The notes beneath the pieces are model-generated. The model was not told the origin of the DNA. It saw only the letters and a list, made by a program, of their open reading frames with translations, and did not search any database. DNA of 44,804 nt from Phycisphaerae bacterium (GTDB lineage Bacteria; Planctomycetota; Phycisphaerae; SM23-33), in NCBI GenBank assembly GCA_046541415.1, contig JBKHDI010000023.1:1-44804 (forward strand). Direction: 5' to 3'. Below are positions 163-15,286 of the stretch, in pieces (position 1 is the first letter of the stretch; the number at the start of each line of letters is the position of its first letter). The position numbers were made by a program, and so were the translations under genes.

Positions 163-530
163 GGGTGCGAGTGCAGGGCAGGTGCTCTGCCGGATGCGAT
201 GAGGCCTGGCTGGGGGTCGGGCCGTCGCGGTTATCCCGGAGGCCATGGGCGTCGGGAGCCTGAGAAAAGGAGAGACGATGGGACCTTGGGTTATGCAGCG
301 TGAGGCGGCTGGGGCGGATCTGTCGGCTGTCGTGGCTGATGGGTTGGGGCAGCGGCGGGGCGTTTTCATCGCGCAATATTCGGGGGGATTTCCGGAGAGG
401 CCCTGCTGTCGGCGGGGAGTAATCGGGACATGGGCGGGAGCGATTTCCTCGGATAGTTGGTTTCGTATTTCTGCAGATTCAAGTATGATCCGTGGGCCAT
501 TTTCTCAATCCTTCTAGGAGCGGCGGCAGG

Positions 531-1226
531 ATGGGGTCGATTCTGGGACATATCAACCGGGTTCTGAAGTCCAACGTGCGTTGGCTGATCGACAAGGCCG
601 GGGGTCCGGTCGTGGAGTGCGAGCACCGGATCGGGCAGATCGAGCAGGCGATCGAAGCCGGGCGGGCTGCGGCGTCGAACTACGCGGCGACGTACCACCG
701 CCTGGAGCGGAAGTCGCAGCAATACCGCCAGAGTCAAGATCGGCTGCTGGCCGAGGCGCGTGAGGCGCTTTGCGAGGGGCAGGAAGACCGGGCCCGGAAG
801 CTGGTTGTCAGGAAGGTGGAGTTGGAAGAGCGTATTGCTTCGTTGCAGCCGGGCATTCATCGCGGCCAGGAGGCGTATGAGCGTTTGTGCAGGTCGCTGG
901 GTGACCTGCAGAACCAGTTGATTCAGGCCCAGACTCGCCTGGCGGAGTTGAAGGATCGCAAGACGGCCGCGGAGGCGGAGATCGAATTCGACCGGGCTTT
1001 GGTCGGCAAGTCGTCTGGCGGGTTGGGCGAGGCCCTGGAGCCGTTGGAGGAGCAGGTCGAATCGGCCGAGTCCGAGGCTGAGGTCCGTCGGGACATGCGG
1101 GACGAAGAGGGTCTGGACCGGGCGCTGCGTCTGCAGAGCCGGGAGATGCAGGTCGAGGCGGAGCTGGAGTCGCTGCGTGACAGGCTTGACGGCGAACCCC
1201 GGTGGCGGGAGGTGGAAGATGATTGA
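531..1226 (+). CDS. pspA: PspA/IM30 (phage-shock protein A / Vipp1 / ESCRT-III superfamily) paralog 1
   Basis: N-terminus MGSILGHINRVLKSNVRWLIDKA matches the PspA N-terminal amphipathic helix. Long heptad coiled coil and acidic C-terminal tail. AGGAG 11 nt upstream of the ATG at 531. The listed ORF 492..1226 begins with GTG, so the internal ATG is preferred. Confidence 0.85.
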   Translation: MGSILGHINRVLKSNVRWLIDKAGGPVVECEHRIGQIEQAIEAGRAAASNYAATYHRLERKSQQYRQSQDRLLAEAREALCEGQEDRARKLVVRKVELEERIASLQPGIHRGQEAYERLCRSLGDLQNQLIQAQTRLAELKDRKTAAEAEIEFDRALVGKSSGGLGEALEPLEEQVESAESEAEVRRDMRDEEGLDRALRLQSREMQVEAELESLRDRLDGEPRWREVEDD

Positions 1227-1878
1227 GTTTTTCAGCTTTGCGTTCTCGGCCTCTGTGGCGTTGTTTTCGATCCTGACGGTGGTGCTGCTGATTTACTGGT
1301 CGGTGGTCGTGCTGGGGCTTGCGGGGACGGACCTGTTCGACATCGACCTGGACGTGGACGTGGATGTCGATGGGGAGGTGGATGCGACGGAGATTTCGTC
1401 TGTCGGCGGGCCGATGGAGGCGATGCTGACGTTCTTCTACGTCGGTCAGGTGCCGGTGATGATTTTGCTGAGCATTCTGATTTTCAGCAGCTGGATCGGG
1501 GCGATGCTGCTGAATTACGAGTACAACCACCCGGCCGACGATTTGCGGATGGGTCTGCTGCTGGCGGCTGCGTCGCTGGGCATCGGCCTGGCGGCGGTGA
1601 AGGTGGTGGGCTGGCCTCTGGGGAGGCTGTTTTCGGTTCTGAACGACGAGCACGGCGCGCGGAATCTGAAGTTGACGGGGCGGATGTGCAGCGTGCTGAG
1701 TACGGTGACGTCGGAACGGATGGGCCAGGCGGAGATTCGCGCCGGTGGCGCTCCGATCGTGATATCCGTGCTGAGCGAAGGGGAGGTGGCCTTTCATCGC
1801 GGGGATGAGGCGTTGGTGTTCGATCATGACAAGAACAGGAACGTGTACCTGATAGCACCTGTAGAATTGGAGAGATAG
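1219..1878 (+). CDS. YqiJ/NfeD-like membrane protein (N-terminal TM helices plus C-terminal OB-fold-like beta domain), flotillin partner
   Basis: Hydrophobic N-terminal half with at least 3 predicted TM segments and an acidic DxD repeat loop. C-terminal beta-rich segment typical of NfeD/YqiJ. Start ATGATTGA overlaps the pspA stop. Sits immediately upstream of the flotillin gene, as in the yqiJ-yqiK and nfeD-floT arrangements. Confidence 0.55.
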   Translation: MIEFFSFAFSASVALFSILTVVLLIYWSVVVLGLAGTDLFDIDLDVDVDVDGEVDATEISSVGGPMEAMLTFFYVGQVPVMILLSILIFSSWIGAMLLNYEYNHPADDLRMGLLLAAASLGIGLAAVKVVGWPLGRLFSVLNDEHGARNLKLTGRMCSVLSTVTSERMGQAEIRAGGAPIVISVLSEGEVAFHRGDEALVFDHDKNRNVYLIAPVELER

Positions 1879-1881
1879 AAG

Positions 1882-3876
1882 ATGAACGTGTTAGCAGCGC
1901 CGGTGCAGACCGGAGTGATCATTGCGGGCATCGCCTTCGGCGTGCTGGTGCTCCTGGCGATTTACGTCGCCATCAAGTGTTTCCACAAGGTCTCCCAGGG
2001 CGAAACGTTGATCCGCAACGGCATGGGGGGCTCGAAGGTGACGTTTTCGGGGATGGTGGTCTGGCCGGTGATTCACCGGGCCGAGTACATGGACATCTCG
2101 GTCAAGCGGATCAGCATCATGCGGCGTGGGGATACGGGCCTGGTCTGTCACGACAACATCCGGGCCGATATTGAAGTGTCGTTTTTTGTTCGCGTCAACA
2201 ATACCTCCGAGGACGTCATGTCTGTCGCCCAGGCCCTTGGCTGCAAGCGGGCCAGCGATGAGAACTCGCTGCACGACCTGTTCGACTCGAAGTTTTCCGA
2301 GGCGCTCAAGACGGTAGGCAAGCGGTTCGAGTTCATTGAACTTTATACCGGGCGGGACAAGTTCAAGGAGGAGATCCTGCAGGTCATCGGTCGCGACCTG
2401 AACGGGTACGTCCTGGAAGACGCGGCGATCGACTATCTCGAGCAGACCGACAAGAAGCTGCTGAACCCGGACAATATCCTCGATGCCGAGGGCATCAAGA
2501 AGATCACGGTCATCACGGCCAAGGAGTTCGAGTTCGCCAACGCCCGGGAACGTGAGAAAGACAAGACGATCACGCAGCAGAACGTCGAGGCCCAGGAGGC
2601 GATCCTGGAGCTGAACAAGCAACTGGCCGAGGCCGAGGCAAAGCAGAAGCGGGAGATCGCGACGATCCAGGCCCGCGAGACGGCCGAGACCAAGAGCGTC
2701 GAGGCCCAGGAAAGCGAGCGGCAGGAGAAGGCGCGGATCGCGGCCGAAGAGCAGATCCAGGTTGCCGACGAGAACAAGCAGCGGCAGATTATCGTCGCTG
2801 CCCGGGCCAAGGAGCGGACGGACAAGGTCGAGACCGAGCGTGTCGAGAAGGACCGCGAGCTGGAACACGTCGAACGGACGCGCGTGGTGAGCCTGGCGGA
2901 CCTGGACAAGGACAAGGCCGTCGAGGGCCAGAAGCGCGAACTGCAATCGGTGATCCGCGACCGCGTCGAGGCGGAGAAAGCGGTCGTCGCCGAGGAAGAG
3001 AACATCAAGAACACGCGTGAGTTCGCCACGGCGGATCGTAGCAAGCGTGTGAAGATCACCAAGGCTGAGGAAGAAGCCGAGCAGGCCCTGGTCAAGGACA
3101 TCAAGGAAGCCGAGGCGGCCAAGCGTGCGGCCGAGCAGTACGCCGAGAAGAAGCTCATCGACGCCGACGCCGAGCAGAAGGCGGCGGACAAGAACGCCGC
3201 GGCGATCAAGACGATGGCCGAGGCGCACGTGAAGGAACGTGCGGTCGACGGCGTGGCCGAGGCGCAGGTGATGGAAGCCAAGGCGTCTGCGACTCGCAAG
3301 CAGGGCGAGGCCGAGGCGGACGTGATGAAGCTGAAGTACACGGCCGAGGCGGAGGGCATTACCGAGAAGGCCGATGCGATGAAGAAGTTCCACGAGGCCG
3401 GCCAGAGCCACGAGGAGTTCAAGCTGGCCCTGGACAAGGACCTGCAGGTGGAGATGGCCGAGATCGAGGCCCGCAAGAAGATCGCCGCCGAGCAGGCGGG
3501 CCTGGTCCGCGAGGGTCTCAAGCAGTCGAAGATCGACATCATCGGCGGGGAGAACCGCTTCTTCGAGCGTCTGGTCAACTCGGTGACGCTGGGCAAGCAG
3601 TTCGACCGCGTGCTGGATCACTCCGATACGCTCTCGGAGCTGCGAGACGCGTTTATCGGCGGCAACGGCCAACAGGCGGCCCAGAAGCTCAAGGACTACA
3701 TCGCCAAGTTCGATCTGTCCAGCGAGGACGTGAAGAACCTGACGATCTCGACGCTGATGATCAAGCTGATCGGCATGAGCGACGGGCGCGAGAAGAACAC
3801 GCTCCAGAAGCTCTTCGGGACCGTCAGGGACATGGGAATGGGCAACCGCCCGGTCAGCGAGCTGGGCCTGGAGTAA
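1882..3876 (+). CDS. SPFH/band-7 flotillin-like protein (YqiK/FloT-like) with long Glu/Ala/Lys-rich coiled-coil C-terminal extension
   Basis: N-terminal TM helix, SPFH-domain motifs, then about 350 aa of EA/KR-rich heptad repeats. GGAGAG RBS 8 nt upstream. Only a 3-nt gap after the preceding gene. Confidence 0.85.
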   Translation: MNVLAAPVQTGVIIAGIAFGVLVLLAIYVAIKCFHKVSQGETLIRNGMGGSKVTFSGMVVWPVIHRAEYMDISVKRISIMRRGDTGLVCHDNIRADIEVSFFVRVNNTSEDVMSVAQALGCKRASDENSLHDLFDSKFSEALKTVGKRFEFIELYTGRDKFKEEILQVIGRDLNGYVLEDAAIDYLEQTDKKLLNPDNILDAEGIKKITVITAKEFEFANAREREKDKTITQQNVEAQEAILELNKQLAEAEAKQKREIATIQARETAETKSVEAQESERQEKARIAAEEQIQVADENKQRQIIVAARAKERTDKVETERVEKDRELEHVERTRVVSLADLDKDKAVEGQKRELQSVIRDRVEAEKAVVAEEENIKNTREFATADRSKRVKITKAEEEAEQALVKDIKEAEAAKRAAEQYAEKKLIDADAEQKAADKNAAAIKTMAEAHVKERAVDGVAEAQVMEAKASATRKQGEAEADVMKLKYTAEAEGITEKADAMKKFHEAGQSHEEFKLALDKDLQVEMAEIEARKKIAAEQAGLVREGLKQSKIDIIGGENRFFERLVNSVTLGKQFDRVLDHSDTLSELRDAFIGGNGQQAAQKLKDYIAKFDLSSEDVKNLTISTLMIKLIGMSDGREKNTLQKLFGTVRDMGMGNRPVSELGLE

Positions 3877-3983
3877 GTCGGCCGGCTAGCGCGGATCAGA
3901 CCTGATTTTCCACATCGAGGCAGCAATGTCTTCCCGGCGGGTCGGCCGGATCGACCCGCCGGGGAGAATCCCACGAGGGCCCT

Positions 3984-6900
3984 ATGTCCGAAGAACAAGC
4001 ACAGCAAGTCCAGCAGCGTCCGGGCGACGGGCAGGAACCCGCCGAAGGGCGGGCCTCCGCACAGTTGGCCGGCGGGACGTACGAGATCCTGCGAAACCGC
4101 CTCCAGGCCCACGCGTCCGAACTGCGAAAGAGGCTGGATACACTCAACGCCGAGCGCAAGGACGTCTTCGGCGCCATTGACTTCCAGCTGCTCGGCTCGC
4201 AGCGCATCCTGACCGACAACAACTGCGTGCCGCGGGACATGGTCGCCCTGGGCGACCGCCTGCTGTTCGGCTACAACGTGTTCATCGGGCTGCGGACCGA
4301 GACGCGGCTGGACGATGTCTTCGCCGTCTACCAGATCGGCGAGGAGAAGATCGTCCGGGAGGATCTGGGCATCCTGCAGGACGAGCGGTTCGTCAAGGAC
4401 TTCCAGAACCTCTACAAGTATTATCGCGAGACGCGTTTCGCGAAGTTCGCGCGGATCGGGCCGAACCTGTTCATGGTCTTCCGGGTGGGCAAGAGCCCCA
4501 CGGACGTCAAGACCTTCAAGTGGGTCGCCGCCCCGGACGGCAGCCTGCAGTACATCGACAATCGCAGCGACCACGAGTACCGCTTCCCGCCGCAGCACCA
4601 GTTCGAGTGGAAGCACGTGACGCTCGACATGCACCGGACCGGGCGTCACCCGCATATCAGCATCGAGGACCGCGTCTTCGTCGAGACCGTCGGCGGGGAC
4701 CTGACGATCAAGATCGAGGACAACACCGAGACGGGGGAGGGCATCTACTCCGAACCGGTGGACAACCCCGACCAGACGCTCGACGACGCCGACATCTCCT
4801 ACGCCTGCGTGGGCAACGTGATCCTCCTGCGGGTCAAACCCTACCAGGAACAGCAGCATCGCTATTATGTCTACAACGAGAAGGTCCAGGAAGCCATGCG
4901 GATCGACGCGATAGCCGAGTCTTGCGTGCTGCTGCCGGAAGACCACGGCCTGATCTTCCCCAAGGGCTACTACCTGCAGACCGGCGAGAAGAAGCTCTTC
5001 GAACTGGACACCAGCGACCTGCTGTTCGAGAAGCGCCTGGCTGCGCCCAACGGCGAGGATTACCTCTACATCTTCTTCAACCGCGAGACCGGCACGTACG
5101 TGCTGCTGTCGTACAACATCATCGAGCAGCAGGTCGCCACCCCGACGGTCTGCCACGGGTACTGCTTCTTCCATGACGGGCAGCTGATCTACTTCCGGGC
5201 CGACTCCGAACCACAGAAGACCCATGCCCTGCAGATCTGGCAGACGCCATACTGCGACCCGGACTACAAGGCCCCCGTCCAGACCGACTCGTTTTTGTAC
5301 AAGGTGGGCAATCGCGAGCTGGTTCGCTGCATGGCCGAGTGCAACGAACTGCTGGGCCTGCTGGGCAAGGAGGAACGCTACGCCAACCTCTATGTCGACC
5401 TGGCCAAGCGCAGCGGCGACCTGCTGGACACGTTCTTCTGGATCAACGACGAAAAGGCGGGCAACCTGGGCCAGCCGCTGGAACAGATCCGCCAGGCCGC
5501 CCAGGCCGCCATCGAAGAGTTCGAGAAAGTCGTCCGCGCCCGCCAGAACACCGCCAGGCGCACCGGGGAGGTGGTCTCCGCTGTCGAGAAGCTCCAGGAA
5601 GAGATCAGCCTGGCCAGCCTGGACAACATCGACACCTTCGTGCAACTGCTGGGCCGGCTGCGGTCGATCCGCGGGGAGATCATCTCCCTGGGCGAGCTTC
5701 GCTACGTCGACGAGCAGCGCGTCGAGCAGCTCGAAGAAACGGTCGTCGAGGCGACCGAGAATCTCTCGGGCCAATGCGTCCAGTTCCTGCTGCGCCCCGA
5801 CGCGCTGGACGCTTACTGCCAGCGGGTGGCCCAGCAGGCCGAGCAGGTCGAGCAGCAGGATACGGTCGTCCAGGCCCGCAAGCTCCAGGAGCAGGTCGCC
5901 CAGACCGGCGACGACCTGGAGATGCTCACCGAGATCGTCTCGAACCTCAAGATCGAGGACGCCACGCAGACCACGCGGATCATCGACTCGATCTCGCTGG
6001 TCTACTCCGAGCTGAACCGCGTTCGCAGCGCCGTCAAGAACCGCATCCAGCACCTGGCCGGGATCGAGGGCAAGGCGGAGTTCGCCTCGCAGATGAAGCT
6101 GATCGACCAGTCTGCAGCCAACTTCCTGGACCTCTGCGACACGCCGGAATCCTGCGACGATTACCTCGGGCGGGTCATGGCCCAGCTGGAGTCGCTGGAG
6201 AGCCGCTTCGCCGACTTCGAGGAGTTCATCGTCCGCCTGGCCGAGAAACGCGAGGAGCTCTACAACGGCTTCGAGTCTCGCAAGGTCCAGCTGGTCGAGG
6301 CGCGGAACCGGCGGGCGTCGGCCCTGGCCGAGGCGGGCAAGCGGGTGCTGAAAGGCATAGCCAATCGCGTCGAACAGCTCGAATCGATCAACGAGATCAA
6401 CGCCTACTTCGCCGGCGACATGATGATCGAGCGGATCCGCGAGACCATCCGCCAGCTGGAACAGATCGGCGACACCGTCAAGGCCGAGGACATCCGCAGC
6501 CAGCTCAAGGCGATCCAGCAGGATTCGGTCCGCCAGCTCAAAGACCGCAAGGGCTTGTACGAGGACGGCGAGAACGTCATCCGCCTCGGCGAGCACCGCT
6601 TCGCGGTCAACCGCCAGAACCTGGAGCTGACGATGCTCCAGCGGGACGGGCGAATGTTCTATCACCTGACCGGCACGGGCTTCTTTCATCCGGTATCCGA
6701 ACCGGAAATCCAGCAGATGCAGGACGTCTGGAACATGGAGGTGCTCAGCGAGTCGCCCGAGATCTACCGCTCGGAGTACCTGGCCTGGCAGATGCTCGAA
6801 CAACTCAAGGCCCAGGGCGATGGGCAGCTGGAGGCGGCCTCCCTGGCCCCGCTGGAAGAGTTGATCCCGAAGGTTTCGGCCTTTATGGCCCCGCGGTACG

Positions 6901-9482
6901 CAGAGGGGTACGTCAAGGGCGTCCACGACCACGACGCGGCCAAGATCCTCCAGGCGCTGATCGGCCTGGAGGCGACGGTCGGGCTGCTGCGCTTCGGGAC
7001 CCAGGCCCGCGCCCTGGCCCGCGTGTTCTGGATGCTCGTCGGCGGCGAGGACAAGGCCGTCGCCCTGGCCGCGCAGATCGCAGGCATCGGCCGGGCGCGG
7101 AGACTTTTTACCGCAGCCAGGCCCGAAAGGCCCTACGTGGCCCGCCTGGTCGGGCTGATCGACGAATTCGTCCAGGCCAACAGCGAACTGTTCGAAGCAC
7201 GGTGGGTCGCAGCGGCCGCCGAGTATCTCTTCGAAGAAATCGCCGCGGGAGGCAAGATGATCGCCTCGACTGCAGCGCTGGATCTGATCGACAGTTTCCA
7301 GAGCCACCTGGCAGACCACCAGGCGACCGAGGACTTCGAGCAGGGCCTCCGCACATTCGCCGATCAGCCCCTGTTGCGGTTCTGCATCAGCCGCGACTGG
7401 CTGCGTTCGTACCTGACGGAAGTCGAAGACGAGACCCAGGCCGAGTATGCCGACGAGGCCGCCGCCCTGCTGGCCGATAACGCCGACAACCGCCAGGGCG
7501 TCCACGCCGAGATCACCCGCACCCTCGAAGGCCTGGCCGGGTCGCACCGGAAGATCCGGCAGGGCACCTGCCAACTGAACTACTGTCACCTGGCCGCCGA
7601 CCTGGCCGAGCACAACCAGCAGGTCGCCCCGCGTTTCCAGGCCTGGCAGCAGCTGCGCAAGAGCTGTCTCGAACGCTTCGCCGACAACCTGCGCCTGGAC
7701 GAATTCCGCCCGCGCGTCCTGACGACGTTCGTCCGCAACAAGTTGATCGATCGCGTCTACCTGCCCCTGCTGGGCGACAACCTGGCCAAGCAGATCGGCA
7801 CTTCCGGTGCGTCCAAGCGGACCGACCGCCAGGGCCTGCTGCTGCTGATCAGCCCGCCGGGGTACGGCAAGACGACGCTGATGGAATACATCGCCAACCG
7901 CCTGGGGCTGATCTTCATGAAGATCAACGGACCCGCCCTGGGCCACCAGGTCACTTCGCTGGACCCGGCCGAGGCGACCAACGCCGCCGCCCGCGAGGAG
8001 GTCGAGAAGCTCAACCTCGCCCTGGAGATGGGCGACAACGTGATGATCTACGTCGACGACATCCAGCACTGCAACCCGGAGCTGCTGCAGAAGTTCATCA
8101 GCCTCTGCGACGCCCAGCGGCGGATGGAAGGCGTCTTCGCGGGCAAGACGCGGACGTACGACCTGCGCGGCAAACGCGTCTGCGTGGTCATGGCGGGCAA
8201 CCCGTATACCGAGAGCGGCGAGAAGTTCCGCATCCCGGACATGCTGGCCAACCGGGCCGATACCTACAACATCGGCGACATCGTCGGCGATACCTACGAC
8301 GAGTTCGTTGCCAGCTACGTCGAGAACTGCCTGACCAGCAACCCGGTGCTCTCGACGCTGGCCAACCGCAGCCAGGACGATGTCTACGCCGTGATGCAAC
8401 TGGCCGAGACAGACAGCCGGGAGGGCATCGAGTTCGAGGGCAACTACAGCCCCGACGAGATCAACGACTTCGTCGCGGCGATGAAGAAGCTCTACGTCGT
8501 CCGCGACGTGGTGCTGAAGGTCAACCAGCAGTACATCGCCTCGGCTGCCCAGTCCGACGCCTATCGCAACGAGCCGCCGTTCCTGCTCCAGGGCTCGTAC
8601 CGGAACATGAACCGCATAGCCGCCCGCGTCCTGCCGGTGATGAACGACCAGGAGCTCTGGACGCTGATCCACTCGACCTACCAGCAGGACGCCCAGACGC
8701 TGACCAGCGGGACCGAGGCGAACATGCTGAAGTTTATGGAGCTGATCGGGCGGCTGGATGAGAAGCAACGGGCCCGCTGGGACGAGATCCGCCGGACTTA
8801 CCGGCAGAACCGCATCCTGGGCGACTCGGATGACAAGCTCGACCAGGCGGTCCGCCAGCTGGGCGTCTTCGGCGGCAACCTCGAAGCGATTCGCGAGGCC
8901 ATCCGCGACGGCGTGGGACAACTGGCGGCAGAAAGGGCATCCGAGGCGGAGCAGGGGCCGGCCGAGCAGCTCGCCCAGGCCGTCGGCGCCAACTTCAGCC
9001 AGGTCGGCCGGCAACTCGATGCGATCCGCCAGGTCCTGGAAACTGCCGCCGACCGCACCGACCCCGGCGGTTCGATCCGCCAGGATCTCCAGCAGGCGGT
9101 CTCGACCGTCGAGCAGCGACTCGGGCAGGTCGTCCAGCTGCTTTCGCAGCAGAACGACGGCCGCGCCGACGCCCTGGCTGAATCGATCCAGAAGAAGGCA
9201 GATACCCTGACTTCGGTTCTGGAAGAGCAGTTCCGGACGATGGAAGTCTGGCTGCGCCCGGTGGCCCGCTCGGAGAAGGGGCGCGTGGAGTATGTCCAGG
9301 ACCTGATCGACCGCTTCCAGGAGATGATCGACGGCTACAGCCACCTCGTCGAGGTCCTCCAGGCCAACGCCGCCGCCAACGACGAGATGCACACGCTGCC
9401 CGAGAAGTCACGCGACCAGGCTGCGGGGCGAAAGAAACAGGACGCAGCGGCCGAGAGAAAACCGCCGAAGAAGAAAAGCTAG
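3984..9482 (+). CDS. Giant (1832 aa) protein with C-terminal-third AAA+ ATPase domain (MoxR/AAA_5-like clade); N-terminal beta-rich region and extensive coiled coils
   Basis: Single uninterrupted ORF. Walker A LLLISPPGYGKTTLMEY (nt about 7855-7878), Walker B VMIYVDDIQH (about 8041-8067), sensor-1 VCVVMAGNP (about 8185-8212) and a candidate Arg finger ANRAD. Long Q/E/R-rich heptad segments flank the ATPase. Homologs of this size are often annotated 'DNA repair ATPase', but I cannot verify a family assignment here. Confidence 0.8.
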   Translation: MSEEQAQQVQQRPGDGQEPAEGRASAQLAGGTYEILRNRLQAHASELRKRLDTLNAERKDVFGAIDFQLLGSQRILTDNNCVPRDMVALGDRLLFGYNVFIGLRTETRLDDVFAVYQIGEEKIVREDLGILQDERFVKDFQNLYKYYRETRFAKFARIGPNLFMVFRVGKSPTDVKTFKWVAAPDGSLQYIDNRSDHEYRFPPQHQFEWKHVTLDMHRTGRHPHISIEDRVFVETVGGDLTIKIEDNTETGEGIYSEPVDNPDQTLDDADISYACVGNVILLRVKPYQEQQHRYYVYNEKVQEAMRIDAIAESCVLLPEDHGLIFPKGYYLQTGEKKLFELDTSDLLFEKRLAAPNGEDYLYIFFNRETGTYVLLSYNIIEQQVATPTVCHGYCFFHDGQLIYFRADSEPQKTHALQIWQTPYCDPDYKAPVQTDSFLYKVGNRELVRCMAECNELLGLLGKEERYANLYVDLAKRSGDLLDTFFWINDEKAGNLGQPLEQIRQAAQAAIEEFEKVVRARQNTARRTGEVVSAVEKLQEEISLASLDNIDTFVQLLGRLRSIRGEIISLGELRYVDEQRVEQLEETVVEATENLSGQCVQFLLRPDALDAYCQRVAQQAEQVEQQDTVVQARKLQEQVAQTGDDLEMLTEIVSNLKIEDATQTTRIIDSISLVYSELNRVRSAVKNRIQHLAGIEGKAEFASQMKLIDQSAANFLDLCDTPESCDDYLGRVMAQLESLESRFADFEEFIVRLAEKREELYNGFESRKVQLVEARNRRASALAEAGKRVLKGIANRVEQLESINEINAYFAGDMMIERIRETIRQLEQIGDTVKAEDIRSQLKAIQQDSVRQLKDRKGLYEDGENVIRLGEHRFAVNRQNLELTMLQRDGRMFYHLTGTGFFHPVSEPEIQQMQDVWNMEVLSESPEIYRSEYLAWQMLEQLKAQGDGQLEAASLAPLEELIPKVSAFMAPRYAEGYVKGVHDHDAAKILQALIGLEATVGLLRFGTQARALARVFWMLVGGEDKAVALAAQIAGIGRARRLFTAARPERPYVARLVGLIDEFVQANSELFEARWVAAAAEYLFEEIAAGGKMIASTAALDLIDSFQSHLADHQATEDFEQGLRTFADQPLLRFCISRDWLRSYLTEVEDETQAEYADEAAALLADNADNRQGVHAEITRTLEGLAGSHRKIRQGTCQLNYCHLAADLAEHNQQVAPRFQAWQQLRKSCLERFADNLRLDEFRPRVLTTFVRNKLIDRVYLPLLGDNLAKQIGTSGASKRTDRQGLLLLISPPGYGKTTLMEYIANRLGLIFMKINGPALGHQVTSLDPAEATNAAAREEVEKLNLALEMGDNVMIYVDDIQHCNPELLQKFISLCDAQRRMEGVFAGKTRTYDLRGKRVCVVMAGNPYTESGEKFRIPDMLANRADTYNIGDIVGDTYDEFVASYVENCLTSNPVLSTLANRSQDDVYAVMQLAETDSREGIEFEGNYSPDEINDFVAAMKKLYVVRDVVLKVNQQYIASAAQSDAYRNEPPFLLQGSYRNMNRIAARVLPVMNDQELWTLIHSTYQQDAQTLTSGTEANMLKFMELIGRLDEKQRARWDEIRRTYRQNRILGDSDDKLDQAVRQLGVFGGNLEAIREAIRDGVGQLAAERASEAEQGPAEQLAQAVGANFSQVGRQLDAIRQVLETAADRTDPGGSIRQDLQQAVSTVEQRLGQVVQLLSQQNDGRADALAESIQKKADTLTSVLEEQFRTMEVWLRPVARSEKGRVEYVQDLIDRFQEMIDGYSHLVEVLQANAAANDEMHTLPEKSRDQAAGRKKQDAAAERKPPKKKS

Positions 9483-9512
9483 CCTTCATCCACCCGCTCG
9501 GGGACCCAAGCC

Positions 9513-10199
9513 ATGGCCCTGATCCGCAGACTCCAACGCATCACGCTGGGGCGTATCGAGGCGTTCCTCGAATCGCTCAAGGCCCCGCATGCCGTCCTGC
9601 CCGGCCTGCTGGCCGAGCTGGACCGGGCGGTGGATTCCGCCGCCCAGGCCGAGGCCAAGGCGCTGTCCGCCTTCAAGTCCGCCCAACGGCGGATCGACGA
9701 GGCAAACGGCAAGCTCCTGCGCCTCGAACAGGGCGCCCAGTTGGCGCTGTCTCGAGACGACGAACCGCTGGCCCGCCGGGCGCTGGCCGAGCAGATCCGG
9801 GTCCAGCAGGAGGGCGAGTCGCTGGCCCAGCGGTTCGAGCAGGCCCGGCAGGCCCACGCCAGTGCCCGGCAGGTCCGCAAGCAGCTCCAGCACAGCCGCA
9901 GGCAGATCCGCCGGCAGGCAGGCGACTTGCCCGCTGTCGCCCGCGCCGGCCAGGCCGCCGCGAAGGCCGAAGACGTCCTCTCGGGGCTGAAAGACCAGGC
10001 CGACTGGGCCCTGCTGGACCTGGTCGCCCGGATGGACAGTCCGGATGTCCCTGCCGATCCGCACGAGGACGAGCAGGCGGACCCCGACGGTCCCGGCCCT
10101 GCCGCCGGGGTTCTGGCCCCCCTGGGGGCCGCCACCGACGCGCCGCCCGAAATCCGGGTCCGCATCGAGCAGATCCGCAACGAACTCCAGGACAGCTGA
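9513..10199 (+). CDS. PspA/IM30-like protein paralog 2 with Pro/Asp-rich disordered C-terminal tail
   Basis: MALIRRLQRITLGRIEAFLESLKAPHAVLPGLLAELDRAV aligns to the PspA helix alpha0/alpha1. Coiled-coil body. The tail DSPDVPADPHEDEQADPDGPGPAAG is absent from paralog 1. Starts 30 nt after the giant-protein stop. Confidence 0.75.
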   Translation: MALIRRLQRITLGRIEAFLESLKAPHAVLPGLLAELDRAVDSAAQAEAKALSAFKSAQRRIDEANGKLLRLEQGAQLALSRDDEPLARRALAEQIRVQQEGESLAQRFEQARQAHASARQVRKQLQHSRRQIRRQAGDLPAVARAGQAAAKAEDVLSGLKDQADWALLDLVARMDSPDVPADPHEDEQADPDGPGPAAGVLAPLGAATDAPPEIRVRIEQIRNELQDS

Positions 10200-10446
10200 C
10201 CGGCCCGGTCGGCAGAGGCCTCCCAGCCACAAGTCGCATCTAACCATTGTCGATATAGTTGGTTACAGGATAATGTCTGCGGCGGACCGGGCCGCATGAT
10301 CCGCAGGGGCCCCCCAGCCGGAAAACTCGACCCTGCTTCTGTGATTTCCACCATTTTCTTGCTTCGGTTCGCTTGGAAATCCGCCGAATCGTACTGTACC
10401 TCCAGGGGGAAAAGCGAAGTGGCTTTTGTGTGCTGGAGGGCTCCCC

Positions 10447-11367
10447 ATGGTTGAAAATGCAAGGCGAACCCAGGCGTCGTCCAAGGTCGGAAACGACAAG
10501 AAGGACCGACGCATGTCCCTGCTCAAACGCGCAGGCCTGTTCTCGAATGACACCCAGGGCGCCCGGATCTTCCGGGCTGTCACCGTCGAGGATCTGCTCG
10601 GCGCCTACGGGCTGACGCACGATGTTTTCGTCCGCCAGGGCTACATCCACCCCGACCCCACGGGCGTGCGCCTGCGGGCGTACGAGGCCCTGCCCCAGAC
10701 GGCTACCTTTGTCGCCGCCGACGGCGAGGACATTGTCGGGGTCACCAGCGTCGTCGTCGATACCCCCCAGCTGGGCCTGCCGACCGACCACGCGTTCGGC
10801 GCGGAGGTCGACTCGATCCGAGGCCCGAACCGCAGGATCTGCGAGGGGACCAACTGGCTGGTCTGCGACTCGCACCGAAACTCGGCGGTATTGACCGAAC
10901 TGATGCGCTGCAGCTTCGCCCACGCTGTCGAAGCCGGCTGCACCGATTTCCTCGGCACGGTCAGCCCGGGCCACGCGAAGTTCTACGAACTGCTGGGTTT
11001 CGAGATTCTCGGCTCGCAGCGCAGCTACTCTGAGGAGATCTACGACCCGGTCGTGCTGGTCCGCCTGGACCTGACGGGCCTGGACGCGCGGTTCCTCTAC
11101 GTCGAGGCCGGCTTCGGGGATGTCGAAAGCTTCCTGAAGCACTACTACATCGAGGACAACCCGTATCATCGTCAAGTGGCGGCCTGGCAGATCCAGTCCG
11201 ATCGCCTCTTCGCCGACCGGACCCTCCTGTCGGTCCTCTTCGTGCGGGAATCGGACCTCCTGCCGCGCTGCAGCGCCGAAGAACTCGATGCGATCGGGCA
11301 ACACTGGAAACAGGTGCCTCTCTGCGAAGTCTATCAGCCGGGCCAGACCAGTCGGCTGCCCAGCTGA
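10447..11367 (+). CDS. GNAT-fold N-acyltransferase (Acetyltransf_5; OlsB/FeeM N-acyl amino acid synthase-like)
   Basis: Sequence pattern (FRAVTVEDLLGAYGLTHDVFV ... LVCDSHRNSAVLTELM ... HAKFYELLGFEILGSQRSY) resembles N-acyl amino acid synthase / ornithine N-acyltransferase families. GGAGGG RBS 6 nt before the ATG at 10447. Alternative starts are 10426 and 10513. Confidence 0.5.
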   Translation: MVENARRTQASSKVGNDKKDRRMSLLKRAGLFSNDTQGARIFRAVTVEDLLGAYGLTHDVFVRQGYIHPDPTGVRLRAYEALPQTATFVAADGEDIVGVTSVVVDTPQLGLPTDHAFGAEVDSIRGPNRRICEGTNWLVCDSHRNSAVLTELMRCSFAHAVEAGCTDFLGTVSPGHAKFYELLGFEILGSQRSYSEEIYDPVVLVRLDLTGLDARFLYVEAGFGDVESFLKHYYIEDNPYHRQVAAWQIQSDRLFADRTLLSVLFVRESDLLPRCSAEELDAIGQHWKQVPLCEVYQPGQTSRLPS

Positions 11368-12426: not shown

Positions 12427-13491
12427 CTAGACCTTTACCGCGAAGGATTCGTTCTTCTTGACATCGGCGCAGAAAGCGGCCAGAAGCTCAGCGGTGTTCT
12501 GCAGGTCGCGCAGGTCGAGCATTTCGACCGTCGAATGCATGTAGCGGTTGGGGATCGATACGATCATCGCCGGGATCCCGCCGTTCTGCGTCCAGTAGGC
12601 GTAGGCGTTGGTCCCGCCGGTGAGGCTGAAGGTCTCGATCTGGTAGTCGATCTTTTTTTTCCTGGCGACCTTCTGGAGGCGGTCGGTGAGCATGGGGTGG
12701 TTCTCGCGACCCAGCGACAGGGCCGGGCCTTTGCCCAGCAGGATCTCGCCGTGCTGCTTGACGTCAATGCCCGGCGTGTCGGTGGCGTGGGTGACGTCGA
12801 CGGCGATGGCGATGTCGGGCTTCTGGGTGAAGCCCTGCATCCGCGCGCCGTTGAGGCCCGTTTCTTCCTGGATGCTGCTGGCGGCGATGATGCACGCCTT
12901 GGGGTCGGACTTCTTGGCGATGCGCAAGGCCTCGATGACCGCCCAGACGCCGGCCTTGTTGTCGAACGCCCGGCTGATGCCGATATTCTCATCGAGCATC
13001 TCGAACTCGTCGACGAAGGTAATCGGGTCTCCCACGGCCACGCGTTTCCTGGCTTCGTCGGCATCGGCGGCGCCGATGTCGATGAACAGCTCGTGCATTT
13101 TGGGGGCTTTGGCGTCCTTGGACTTGTCGCCGAGGTGGATGGCGGTGGCGCCGATCACGCCGCGGACGGCGCCCTTGGCTGCGTGGATGTCGACGCGTTT
13201 GGAGCGGATCAGGGCCGGGTCGACCCCGCCGATCCGCTGGAAGTAGATGTAGCCCTTCGGGTCGATGTACTTGACCATCAGGCCGATCTCGTCGACGTGC
13301 CCGTCCAGGACGATCCGCGGGCTGCCCTTGGGGTTGACGATCGCCACCGCATTGCCGTACGCGTCGGTCTTGACCTCGTCGGCGACCTTGCGGGCGTAGT
13401 CGCACCAGACCTTCTGATTCTTCGTCTCAAAGCCGCTGGGCGACGGGGTGGCCAGCAGCTTCTTGAGAAACTCCAACGATTCTTTACGCAT
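12427..13491 (-). CDS. M42-family metallopeptidase (glutamyl aminopeptidase / FrvX-YsdC-like)
   Basis: LDGHVDEIGLMV, FDNKAGVW and EETGLNGA metal-binding signature blocks of M42/M20 peptidases. 354 aa. Confidence 0.85.
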   Translation of the reverse strand: MRKESLEFLKKLLATPSPSGFETKNQKVWCDYARKVADEVKTDAYGNAVAIVNPKGSPRIVLDGHVDEIGLMVKYIDPKGYIYFQRIGGVDPALIRSKRVDIHAAKGAVRGVIGATAIHLGDKSKDAKAPKMHELFIDIGAADADEARKRVAVGDPITFVDEFEMLDENIGISRAFDNKAGVWAVIEALRIAKKSDPKACIIAASSIQEETGLNGARMQGFTQKPDIAIAVDVTHATDTPGIDVKQHGEILLGKGPALSLGRENHPMLTDRLQKVARKKKIDYQIETFSLTGGTNAYAYWTQNGGIPAMIVSIPNRYMHSTVEMLDLRDLQNTAELLAAFCADVKKNESFAVKV

Positions 13492-13639
13492 GATGCTTCC
13501 TTCCTGGTATTCGAGGGTCAGAACAGCTTATCGGCCGGCCGGGCCAGACACAATAGCCATCCGCTCGGGCGACCGGGACGGGCCTGCGGGGGATTTGGCG
13601 TTGGCAGCGGGCCCGCGGCTGCCTACACTGTCGGACATT

Positions 13640-15286
13640 ATGGCAAATCCTTACCTGGATCGCAGATACCTGATCAGCTTCGAGACGCGTCGCCTGCCGT
13701 ACGTCTTTACCGACGTGCTGGTCATCGGCTCGGGCATCGCGGGGCTGCGGGCCGCCCTGGCAGCGGCCGAGAACTGTCGTGTGCTGCTGGTGACCAAATC
13801 GGACCTGGCCAGCTCGAATTCGTACAAGGCCCAGGGCGGCATGGCGGCGGCGATTGCCCCGACCGACAGCATCGGCCAGCACCAGGCCGACACGCTGAGA
13901 ACCGGCTGCGACCTGTCCGACCCGGACGTGGTCGGCGACGTGCTCAGCCAGGCACCGGGGCAGGTCGAGCAGCTCAAGGGGTGGGGCGCGGCGTTCGATG
14001 AGTCTGCCGGACAGCTGGAACTCGGGCGCGAGGGGGGGCACGGCGCCGACCGGATCGTCCACGCCCACGGCGACGCGACCGGGCGCGAGCTGGTCGACGT
14101 GCTGGCCCGCCAGGCCCAGGCGGCCGGGAACCTCAAGCTCTGGTCCGACTGCTACGTGCTGGACCTGATTACCGACCCGCCGGGCGGCGGGAACGCAGCC
14201 AGTTGCCTCGGGGCCCTGACGTGGCACGAGCGGTACGGGCTGCAGATCATCCAGGCGCGGCGGACGATCCTGGCCGCCGGCGGCAGCGGCATGCTCTGGC
14301 GCGAAACGACCAACCCGCCGGTTTCGACCGCCGACGGACTGGCCATCGCCTTCCGGGCCGGGGTCAGCCTGGCCGACGTGGAGTTCATGCAGTTCCACCC
14401 GACCACCCTGTATGTCGCCGGCGCGACGCGCTCGCTGATCAGCGAGGCCGTCCGCGGCGAGGGGGCCAAGCTGCTGAACCGCAACATGCAGCGGTTCATG
14501 CCCGACTATCACGAGATGGCCGAACTGGCCCCGCGCGACGTGGTCAGCCGGGCCATCCTCGACCAGATGCAGAAGACCGAATCGACACACGTATACCTCG
14601 ACGTGCGTCATCTCGATGCGGCCGCCTTCGCGGCGCGGTTCCCCTACATCGACCGCCAGTGTCGCTCGTTCGAGATCAACCCGGCCGAGGATTTGATCCC
14701 CGTCCACCCGGCCGCCCATTACATGATCGGCGGGGCGAAGGTCGACTCGGCCGGGCGGACGAACGTGGCGAACCTGCTGGCCTGCGGCGAGGCGGCTTGC
14801 ACGGGCCTGCACGGGGCCAACCGCCTGGCCTCGAACAGCCTGACCGAGGCGCTGGTTCTGGGCCAGCGCTGCGGCGAGCTGGCAGGCAGGGAGTCGGCCG
14901 AGGCGGAAGACAACCTCATCCCGCGGGATTTTGCCTGGTCCAACCCCACGCCCGAGCGCAGCGAGATGGACCTGGTCGACATCCGCAATTCGCTGCGGTC
15001 GGTCATGTGGCGGAACGTGGGCATCGTCCGGCGCGGCGACCACCTGGCCGACACGCTGGAGATCGTCTCGTTCTGGGGTCGTTACGTGCTGGACAAGGAA
15101 TTCTTCGACCCTGCCGGCTGGGAGGTCCAGAACATGCTCACCGCGTCGTACCTGATTGCCGAACTGGCCCTGCGCCGCACCGAGACCCGCGGCGTGCACT
15201 ATCGCCAGGACTTTCCGGACCTGGACCCCAACTGGGCCCGCCACCAGGCCGTCCAGCGCAGCCAGCACCAGTTGATCGTCCAGTAG
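13640..15286 (+). CDS. nadB: L-aspartate oxidase
   Basis: FAD-binding VLVIGSGIAGLRAALAAA and SNSYKAQGGMAAA motifs. RGEGA and HYMIGG signature regions. About 548 aa. Confidence 0.85.
   Translation: MANPYLDRRYLISFETRRLPYVFTDVLVIGSGIAGLRAALAAAENCRVLLVTKSDLASSNSYKAQGGMAAAIAPTDSIGQHQADTLRTGCDLSDPDVVGDVLSQAPGQVEQLKGWGAAFDESAGQLELGREGGHGADRIVHAHGDATGRELVDVLARQAQAAGNLKLWSDCYVLDLITDPPGGGNAASCLGALTWHERYGLQIIQARRTILAAGGSGMLWRETTNPPVSTADGLAIAFRAGVSLADVEFMQFHPTTLYVAGATRSLISEAVRGEGAKLLNRNMQRFMPDYHEMAELAPRDVVSRAILDQMQKTESTHVYLDVRHLDAAAFAARFPYIDRQCRSFEINPAEDLIPVHPAAHYMIGGAKVDSAGRTNVANLLACGEAACTGLHGANRLASNSLTEALVLGQRCGELAGRESAEAEDNLIPRDFAWSNPTPERSEMDLVDIRNSLRSVMWRNVGIVRRGDHLADTLEIVSFWGRYVLDKEFFDPAGWEVQNMLTASYLIAELALRRTETRGVHYRQDFPDLDPNWARHQAVQRSQHQLIVQ

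Follow-up and report, generated by a model that had tools for sequence, protein, structure and literature searches.

A Phycisphaerae operon joining YqiJ-like, flotillin, and giant ATPase genes with PspA paralogs: a putative membrane-remodeling module

Genes of the operon and conservation of its core

Five plus-strand open reading frames (ORFs) at positions 531 to 10199 of a 44.8-kb contig from a Phycisphaerae metagenome-assembled genome (the whole contig, 44,804 nucleotides, is referred to here as the window) form a predicted operon. They encode two PspA/IM30 family proteins and, between these, a YqiJ/NfeD-like membrane protein, a flotillin, and a giant ATPase (Table 1). The successive junctions are an overlap of 8 nt and gaps of 3, 107, and 30 nt, and the start codons chosen agree with the N termini of orthologs. 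An initial annotation of this DNA had listed five same-strand genes with these identities and junctions, and it is borne out by the ORF coordinates and family matches.

Table 1. Features of the operon and the region upstream of it
Feature	Position	Strand	Description
Structured 5′ leader	195..260	+	P1 stem with internal hairpin; P2 hairpin
Orphan ORF	278..517 (ORF listing, 245-517)	+	79 aa from ATG 278; slot of PspA "A"
PspA paralog "B"	531..1226	+	231 aa; ESCRT-III-fold PspA/IM30 family; PF04012, E 5.7e-18
YqiJ/YuaF-type (short NfeD-like) membrane protein	1219..1878	+	three hydrophobic segments, acidic loop, C-terminal soluble domain
YqiK-type flotillin (SPFH/Band-7 plus long coiled coil)	1882..3876	+	664 aa; one N-terminal transmembrane helix
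Giant soluble ATPase	3984..9482	+	1832 aa; DUF3686, DUF7902, and one AAA domain
ATPase β-propeller domain	4185..5243	+	aa 68-420; AlphaFold2 strands, Foldseek
ATPase AAA+ module	7746..8813	+	aa ~1255-1610; Pfam AAA at aa 1286-1407; best-conserved region
PspA paralog "C"	9513..10199	+	228 aa; PF04012, E 4.7e-12; starts 30 nt past the ATPase

The YqiJ-like protein scored above the cutoff of Pfam family PF21001 (YqiJ_N; 27.6 bits versus a cutoff of 23). BLASTP of the window protein against Escherichia coli YqiJ gave no match, whereas profile comparison with hhalign aligned its family with E. coli YqiJ over the full length (amino acids [aa] 4 to 197 of 209; probability, 94.8%; E, 5e-8). Transmembrane (TM) segments are predicted at aa 13 to 31, ~72 to 98, and ~109 to 130. 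No match to PF01957 (the NfeD OB-fold) was found at an E of ≤0.01; the C-terminal region aligns with the C terminus of E. coli YqiJ. The product of the next gene had no direct match in Pfam (including Band_7), NCBIfam, or PDB sequences, even when 24 orthologs were scanned. We identified it as a flotillin because its family profile aligns with E. coli YqiK (hhalign probability, 100%; E, 1.4e-39) over 397 columns that span the SPFH and coiled-coil regions. Its single predicted TM helix is at aa 13 to 31, and distant orthologs in the same slot match PF01145 (Band_7). Two of the related loci compared below have an extra ORF between the YqiJ and flotillin genes: one of 183 aa with a marginal Band_7 match (L072, 6960 to 7511; E, 0.078) and one of 52 aa (L084, 12177 to 12335).

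We compared gene neighborhoods in the 80 closest genomic loci, which represent seven phylum-level groups (Planctomycetota, Bacteroidota, Polyangia, Calditrichia, Verrucomicrobiales, Desulfobacterales, and Hydrogenedentota). The flotillin gene was directly upstream of the ATPase gene in all 57 loci whose sequence extends at least 2.3 kb upstream, and the YqiJ gene was upstream in all 53 loci with at least 3.1 kb. Four distant relatives (29 to 34% identical in the N domain) had enough upstream sequence to be scored, and each showed the YqiJ-flotillin-ATPase triad. Because this gene order persists across many loci at protein identities of merely 30 to 60%, the arrangement is not due to chance. 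The earlier reading of the cluster as a functional unit that is conserved and tied to the membrane stands. As judged from sequence, the invariant core consists of three genes, predicted to be cotranscribed, that encode a YqiJ/NfeD-like protein with three TM segments, a YqiK-type flotillin with one TM helix, and a cytoplasmic ATPase of giant size.

In contrast, a PspA gene was found within 10 kb of the ATPase gene in only 6 of the 41 loci with both flanks. These counts were made with a hidden Markov model that is sensitive enough to pick up both E. coli PspA (E, 6e-35) and the divergent PspA of locus L092 (E, 2e-5); hence, we consider the PspA-negative loci credible. Where PspA was present, at least four layouts were seen: A-B-core-C in Phycisphaerae, CesT/Tir-PspA-core in four Bacteroidota loci, a divergent upstream gene in Polyangia, and a convergent downstream gene overlapping the ATPase stop codon in L092. 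The four Bacteroidota loci (L072, L074, L075, and L078), with ATPases 52 to 53% identical to that of the window, have the full order CesT_Tir_1 (PF22550; E, 5e-56)-PspA-YqiJ-flotillin-ATPase. With few pspA genes per genome, we estimate that ~1% of 20-kb intervals would contain one by chance. Recurrence in at least four layouts against this expectation indicates that the PspA link is real, though facultative. Gene order indicates that PspA genes have joined the core repeatedly, in differing layouts, and that those of the window are dedicated, position-specific paralogs. By the same comparison, the module is centered on flotillin/NfeD and not, as had been proposed, on PspA.

Domain anatomy of the giant ATPase

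The giant protein (P0001), which carries the database name "DNA repair ATPase," matched DUF3686 (E, 1e-194), DUF7902, and one AAA domain in Pfam. Clustered at 50% identity, its N-domain family falls into 773 clusters, of which 276 have an E of ≤1e-30; full-length members are consistently 1,600 to 1,900 aa long. AlphaFold2 (AF2) models had a mean predicted local distance difference test (pLDDT) score of 81 for aa 1 to 920 and 74 for aa 901 to 1832. In these models, an N-terminal helix (aa 30 to 62) precedes the DUF3686 region (aa ~68 to 420), where ~28 strands in seven groups of four make up a roughly seven-bladed β-propeller. Foldseek matched the propeller to those of clathrin heavy chain, Elp1, a nucleoporin, and prolyl-oligopeptidases, with low TM-scores for the coat-protein matches. 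Spectrin-like helical repeats follow (aa ~437 to 855, including DUF7902); their fold matches were tandem spectrin, plectin, or desmoplakin repeats. Next come a small β domain (aa ~865 to 903) and, after residue ~903, a confidently modeled helical middle domain. The C terminus, a coiled coil that ends in a basic tail, is poorly conserved, and no TM segment was predicted anywhere in the protein.

Conservation is highest in the AAA+ module (column conservation, 0.82 to 0.91 over aa 1251 to 1450). Four motifs were invariant in 79 ATPase sequences: Walker A (SPPGYGKTT), Walker B (hhhhDDIQH), AGNPYTESG (sensor 1), and ANRAD (conserved arginine). Walker B and sensor 1 are separated by a predicted β-hairpin (aa ~1380 to 1393), and the region as modeled by AF2 and searched with Foldseek matched subunits of AAA+ hexamers. 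With its invariant sensor-1 and arginine positions, the protein appears to be an active AAA+ enzyme. The nearest solved relatives by sequence were the D1 domains of Cdc48/p97, around Walker A only (E, ~1e-5). Structure comparison supported the N-terminal β-propeller and the spectrin-like repeats but gave weak fold matches for the AAA+ module (E, ~0.01), spread over RuvB, NorQ/CbbQ, ClpB-NBD2, and MCM, so that no clade was assignable. The MoxR/AAA_5 type first given for the protein was not established either: PF00004 (AAA) scored 33.1 bits (cutoff, 21.2) and AAA_5 scored 30.3 bits, no VWA gene was present in any neighborhood, and the protein is not a compact one of ~300 aa.

PspA paralogs and a structured leader in Phycisphaerae

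Both PspAs of the window exceed the PF04012 gathering cutoff of 33.9 bits (PspA-B, 65.8 bits; PspA-C, 46.4 bits), and both stay below the equivalog cutoffs that NCBIfam sets for E. coli-type PspA. By these scores, they are members of the PspA/IM30 family and not strict PspA orthologs. They had been described as divergent, in agreement with their mutual identity of 14% and their membership in different position-specific groups. We found three such groups among the relatives, namely, A (first gene), B (second gene), and C (downstream gene); A and C are sister groups with ~35% identity, and B is ~20% identical to either. PspA-B shares 36 to 40% identity with the PspAs that occupy its position in L082, L084, L086, L031, and L005. 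A homology search with PspA-B yielded one close relative only, the next match being an ordinary stand-alone PspA. A PspA gene also follows the ATPase gene in L001, L003, L005, L031, L040, L082 to L084, and L086 to L088. Homologs of PspA-C form 12 clusters at an E of ≤1e-5, and every C- or A-type homolog on a contig long enough to judge belongs to an operon of the PspA-PspA-YqiJ-flotillin-ATPase-PspA type.

The closest relative, L087/L088 (ATPase, 81% identical; operon DNA, 78 to 80% identical), has all three PspA paralogs and encodes a 230-aa PspA where the window has the orphan ORF. The ATG at position 278 of the window aligns with the PspA-A start codon of L087, L082, L086, and L089, and the orphan ORF had no Pfam match and no similarity to PspA. 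Since the leader (see below), Shine-Dalgarno sequence, and ATG are retained with no PspA coding sequence behind them, and since the relatives have PspA-A, we concluded that PspA-A was lost in the lineage of the window. Deletion or decay of that gene probably left the orphan ORF behind as a remnant. Thus, the two divergent PspAs that had been taken for a pair are indeed present, but they represent a reduced form of a three-paralog set. No CesT/Tir homolog was found in the window or in any Planctomycetota locus examined. This multi-PspA Phycisphaerae variant of the operon class, without CesT/Tir and with a structured leader, has apparently gone unreported so far.

The A- and C-type PspAs share a C-terminal pattern, D-x-x-[VI]-x-x-R-[LM]-x-x-[LM]-[KR], in a comparison that covered the window and the paralogs of L084, L086, L031, L005, L040, and L001. 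The eukaryotic ESCRT-III MIM1 consensus, (D/E)xxLxxRLxxL(K/R), is fitted exactly by 8 of 20 A/C-type C termini. The C-terminal helix region lies at aa 208 to 216 of PspA-B and aa 214 to 222 of PspA-C in the window. At the position of the MIM1 arginine, B-type PspAs have glutamate and E. coli PspA, which ends in DDAISEQLAQLK, has glutamine. Because E. coli PspA has a similar terminal helix, which makes the helix a general feature of PspA, we treat the MIM1-like match as a lead only.

All multi-PspA operons have in common a leader of ~70 nt with two stems, located upstream of the first PspA gene. Its P2 hairpin has the form GGTTATCCCGG-loop-TCGGGAGCC. In the relatives, the leader directly precedes the Shine-Dalgarno sequence and ATG of the first PspA gene (L031, ~5540 to 5614; L082, ~9420 to 9496; L084, ~9920 to 9995; L086, ~320 to 390; L087, ~150 to 225; L089, ~300 to 367). 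Positions 220 to 272 of the window are 83% identical to the L087 leader over 53 nt, and the conservation is visible in an alignment of 8 loci. RNAalifold predicted 22 pairs, 10 of which show compensatory changes. In the leader, 94% of cells were paired, compared with 31 to 60% in slid controls, and the observed covariation was reached by none of 500 shuffles. As MAFFT had moved two leader rows by one base, we scanned for the P2 pattern with a regular expression instead of a covariance model. It occurred 11 times in 1.68 Mb (both strands), always directly upstream of the first PspA gene of a multi-PspA operon. Rfam gave no match at an E of ≤1 in positions 1 to 700 of the window. We regard the leader as a good candidate for a cis-regulatory RNA, not a proven one, given that it is represented by seven sequences only. 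Upstream of it, a tandem GATTGGTT repeat is present in 3 copies near positions 138 to 161, and the start of the contig (positions 1 to 530) is G-rich on the plus strand, with a GC skew of +0.29 across the first 2 kb.

In L082 (7110 to 9173) and L083 (7092 to 9155), the multi-PspA operon is immediately preceded by a gene for an FtsH protease, and in the distant locus L091 an FtsH gene (137 to 2098) lies ~3 kb upstream of the core, whose YqiJ-like gene starts at 5239; this could be coincidence or a further link between SPFH proteins and AAA+ machines. The same distant family member has a TelA (toxic anion resistance) gene after the ATPase gene, at the slot of PspA-C (13001 to 14221). In L086, the ATPase is divided between two ORFs (4677 to 9992; 237 and 1,520 aa) that each match DUF3686, probably as a result of a frameshift or assembly error, and a GrpE-like/HSP70/TerB cluster lies 3 to 8 kb downstream. 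The neighbors of the operon in the window, an M42 peptidase, a succinate dehydrogenase-type flavoprotein, and a TPR protein, are housekeeping genes. A FeeM-like N-acyl amino acid synthase gene (PF21926; E, 1.5e-35) occupies positions 10426 to 11367 on the plus strand, 226 nt past the second PspA gene; neither it nor the 90-aa ORF flanking the operon is conserved beside the operon in the other loci examined.

Proposed function and relation to known systems

The region represents the Phycisphaerae form of a membrane module that is widely distributed. We think it somewhat more likely than not that the task of this module is the ATP-driven remodeling of a flotillin/NfeD scaffold that engages PspA. 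Flotillin and YqiJ would form an oligomeric scaffold at the cytoplasmic face of the inner membrane. The ATPase would dock onto this scaffold via its propeller or its spectrin-like arm, oligomerize via the AAA+ module, and use ATP hydrolysis to assemble, turn over, or dismantle the scaffold. Where PspAs are encoded with it, the ATPase would also act on the ESCRT-III-fold PspA polymers recruited there during membrane stress. Flotillin/NfeD would then be the obligate partner of the ATPase, and PspA a lineage-specific client or effector. We favor this reading because core synteny is invariant, the PspA linkage is recurrent but facultative, the ATPase motifs are invariant, and there are precedents for such partnerships. 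SPFH cages partner AAA+ machines, as in the case of HflK/C and FtsH. For Bacillus subtilis, the SPFH protein YdjI is reported to be required for bringing PspA to the membrane (PMC8581546).

Several points weigh against it. The Walker B motif is hhhhDD and not DE, which makes the rate of hydrolysis uncertain, and as long as the AAA+ clade is unassigned, neither threading nor unfoldase activity can be taken as the established mechanism. The set of 80 loci consists of the closest relatives and is skewed toward Planctomycetota. PspA-less loci may use a PspA encoded elsewhere, as the comparison covered 10 kb on either side, and in that case PspA could be more important than we propose. In addition, we found no experiment on any family member in the literature.

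An alternative that puts PspA at the center would make the ATPase a nonhomologous analog of Vps4 that mainly disassembles or remodels a PspA heteropolymer, with flotillin/NfeD merely as the platform. It draws on the up to three dedicated PspAs, confined to this operon type, that flank the ATPase in Phycisphaerae, on the several independent origins of the PspA linkage, and on the exact MIM1 fits. It would also fill a gap noted in the field, where the regulator of bacterial PspA polymerization is regarded as unknown and a Vps4-like ATPase as seemingly absent from bacteria (2025 review, PMC7619361). However, PspA is missing from the surrounding 10 kb in most family members, which nevertheless always have flotillin and YqiJ, no MIT domain was detected with Pfam and the N terminus is a propeller, and the C-terminal helix is general to PspA, with the B type having glutamate for arginine; we therefore hold this alternative to be unlikely. 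A more specific proposal, that the ATPase is the bacterial counterpart of Vps4, docked on flotillin/NfeD, recognizing the MIM1-like helices of A/C-type PspAs, and remodeling a PspA heteropolymer with ATP under the control of the structured RNA leader, seems to us more doubtful still. If true, it would mean an ESCRT-like machine built from nonhomologous parts, under a previously unrecognized structured RNA leader. We place at about the same low level the suggestion that the giant protein is mainly a submembrane skeleton or coat of propeller and spectrin-like rods in which nucleotide binding controls oligomerization and does no mechanical work. The leading fold matches (clathrin heavy chain, nucleoporin-type propeller-plus-helical proteins, and tandem spectrin, plectin, or desmoplakin repeats) fit such a role, as do the ~1,200 of 1,832 residues that are non-ATPase scaffold and the DD of Walker B. 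The coat-protein matches have low TM-scores, however, and the best conservation is in the AAA+ module, whose invariant sensor 1 and arginine form a pattern that active enzymes typically show.

Some defense systems contain large NTPases fused to propellers, and the module could be read as an antiphage or conflict system, with an NTPase sensor that sets off membrane or phospholipase effectors. Consistent with this, six Planctomycetia loci (e.g., L011, 5757 to 6440) have a small PLDc_2 (PLD-like, HKD) gene upstream of the YqiJ gene on the same strand. But that gene is absent from the window, where the neighbors are housekeeping genes, vertical conservation of the core extends across phyla, in differing housekeeping settings, and PADLOC gave no significant match for any of the five proteins, just coiled-coil noise and one Walker-A-level match (E, 0.007). 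We consider a defense role very improbable. A role in DNA repair, as given by the database name and the Pfam description of DUF3686, has that inherited annotation as its one argument and seems hardly credible: Pfam detected no nuclease or DNA-binding domain, no conserved repair genes lie nearby, the obligate neighbors encode membrane proteins, and weak SMC/JetC matches fell on the coiled-coil PspAs and not on the ATPase. The initial placement of the ATPase outside characterized DNA repair and defense families is thus upheld.

An open question is how bacteria disassemble or regulate their ESCRT-III-fold polymers (PspA and Vipp1), and the role of bacterial flotillins is poorly understood. By combining flotillin/NfeD, an active-looking AAA+ protein, and in some lineages up to three PspAs, the module offers an experimental handle on both, and orthologs are present in cultured Bacteroidota (Hymenobacter and Dokdonia).

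The initial annotation held that such an arrangement had not been described. An operon class that combines PspA, YqiJ/YuaF, a Band-7/flotillin protein, and an ATPase with β-propeller, coiled-coil, and AAA+ regions had, however, already been reported from comparative genomics by Ravi et al. (mSystems 2024, PMC11237479; bioRxiv 2020), so that the association of PspA, flotillin, and ATPase is itself in the literature as a genomic prediction. In the same study, abbreviated flotillin-YqiJ(-ATPase) operons were more widespread, a PLD/HKD gene, which the PLDc_2 gene of the six Planctomycetia loci matches, was sometimes present, Dokdonia donghaensis (Bacteroidota) provided an example context, and a chaperone-like function in putting together membrane complexes was proposed; the comparison with Vps4 was made there for a second, different AAA+ partner of PspA (PMC11237479). 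Our searches found nothing in the literature on DUF3686/PF12458 or on a "DNA repair ATPase" with flotillin. New here are the evidence for flotillin, not PspA, as the invariant partner, the description of the variant with several PspAs in Phycisphaerae, the domain layout worked out for the ATPase, and the candidate cis-regulatory RNA.

The operon of the window shares with the class of Ravi et al. the YqiJ-flotillin-ATPase core, its order, and the architecture of the ATPase (propeller, helical region, and single AAA+ module), and the Bacteroidota orthologs of the window ATPase show the published layout, including PspA upstream and CesT/Tir in 4 of 4 loci. Unlike that layout, the window lacks the CesT/Tir-PspA dyad at the head of the operon and has position-specific PspAs, one of them downstream of the ATPase, together with the structured leader. 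E. coli yqiJ-yqiK comprises homologs of the second and third genes in the same order and with tight coupling, but that locus has neither the giant ATPase nor PspA. As with Vps4 and ESCRT-III in archaea and eukaryotes, an AAA+ ATPase adjoins several ESCRT-III-fold paralogs, and the PspA C-terminal helix resembles MIM1. In contrast to Vps4, the ATPase of the window has a propeller at its N terminus with no MIT domain detected by Pfam, differs in size and architecture, has a predicted pre-sensor-1 hairpin that classical AAA proteins lack, and has flotillin rather than PspA as its obligate partner. HflK/C-FtsH and other SPFH-AAA+ pairings likewise couple an SPFH scaffold genetically with an AAA+ machine at the membrane, whereas the ATPase described here lacks both a protease domain and a TM anchor, and its AAA+ module is divergent. 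Finally, B. subtilis pspA-ydjGHI encodes PspA together with an SPFH protein that links PspA to the membrane, but that operon has no ATPase and involves another SPFH subfamily and other membrane partners.

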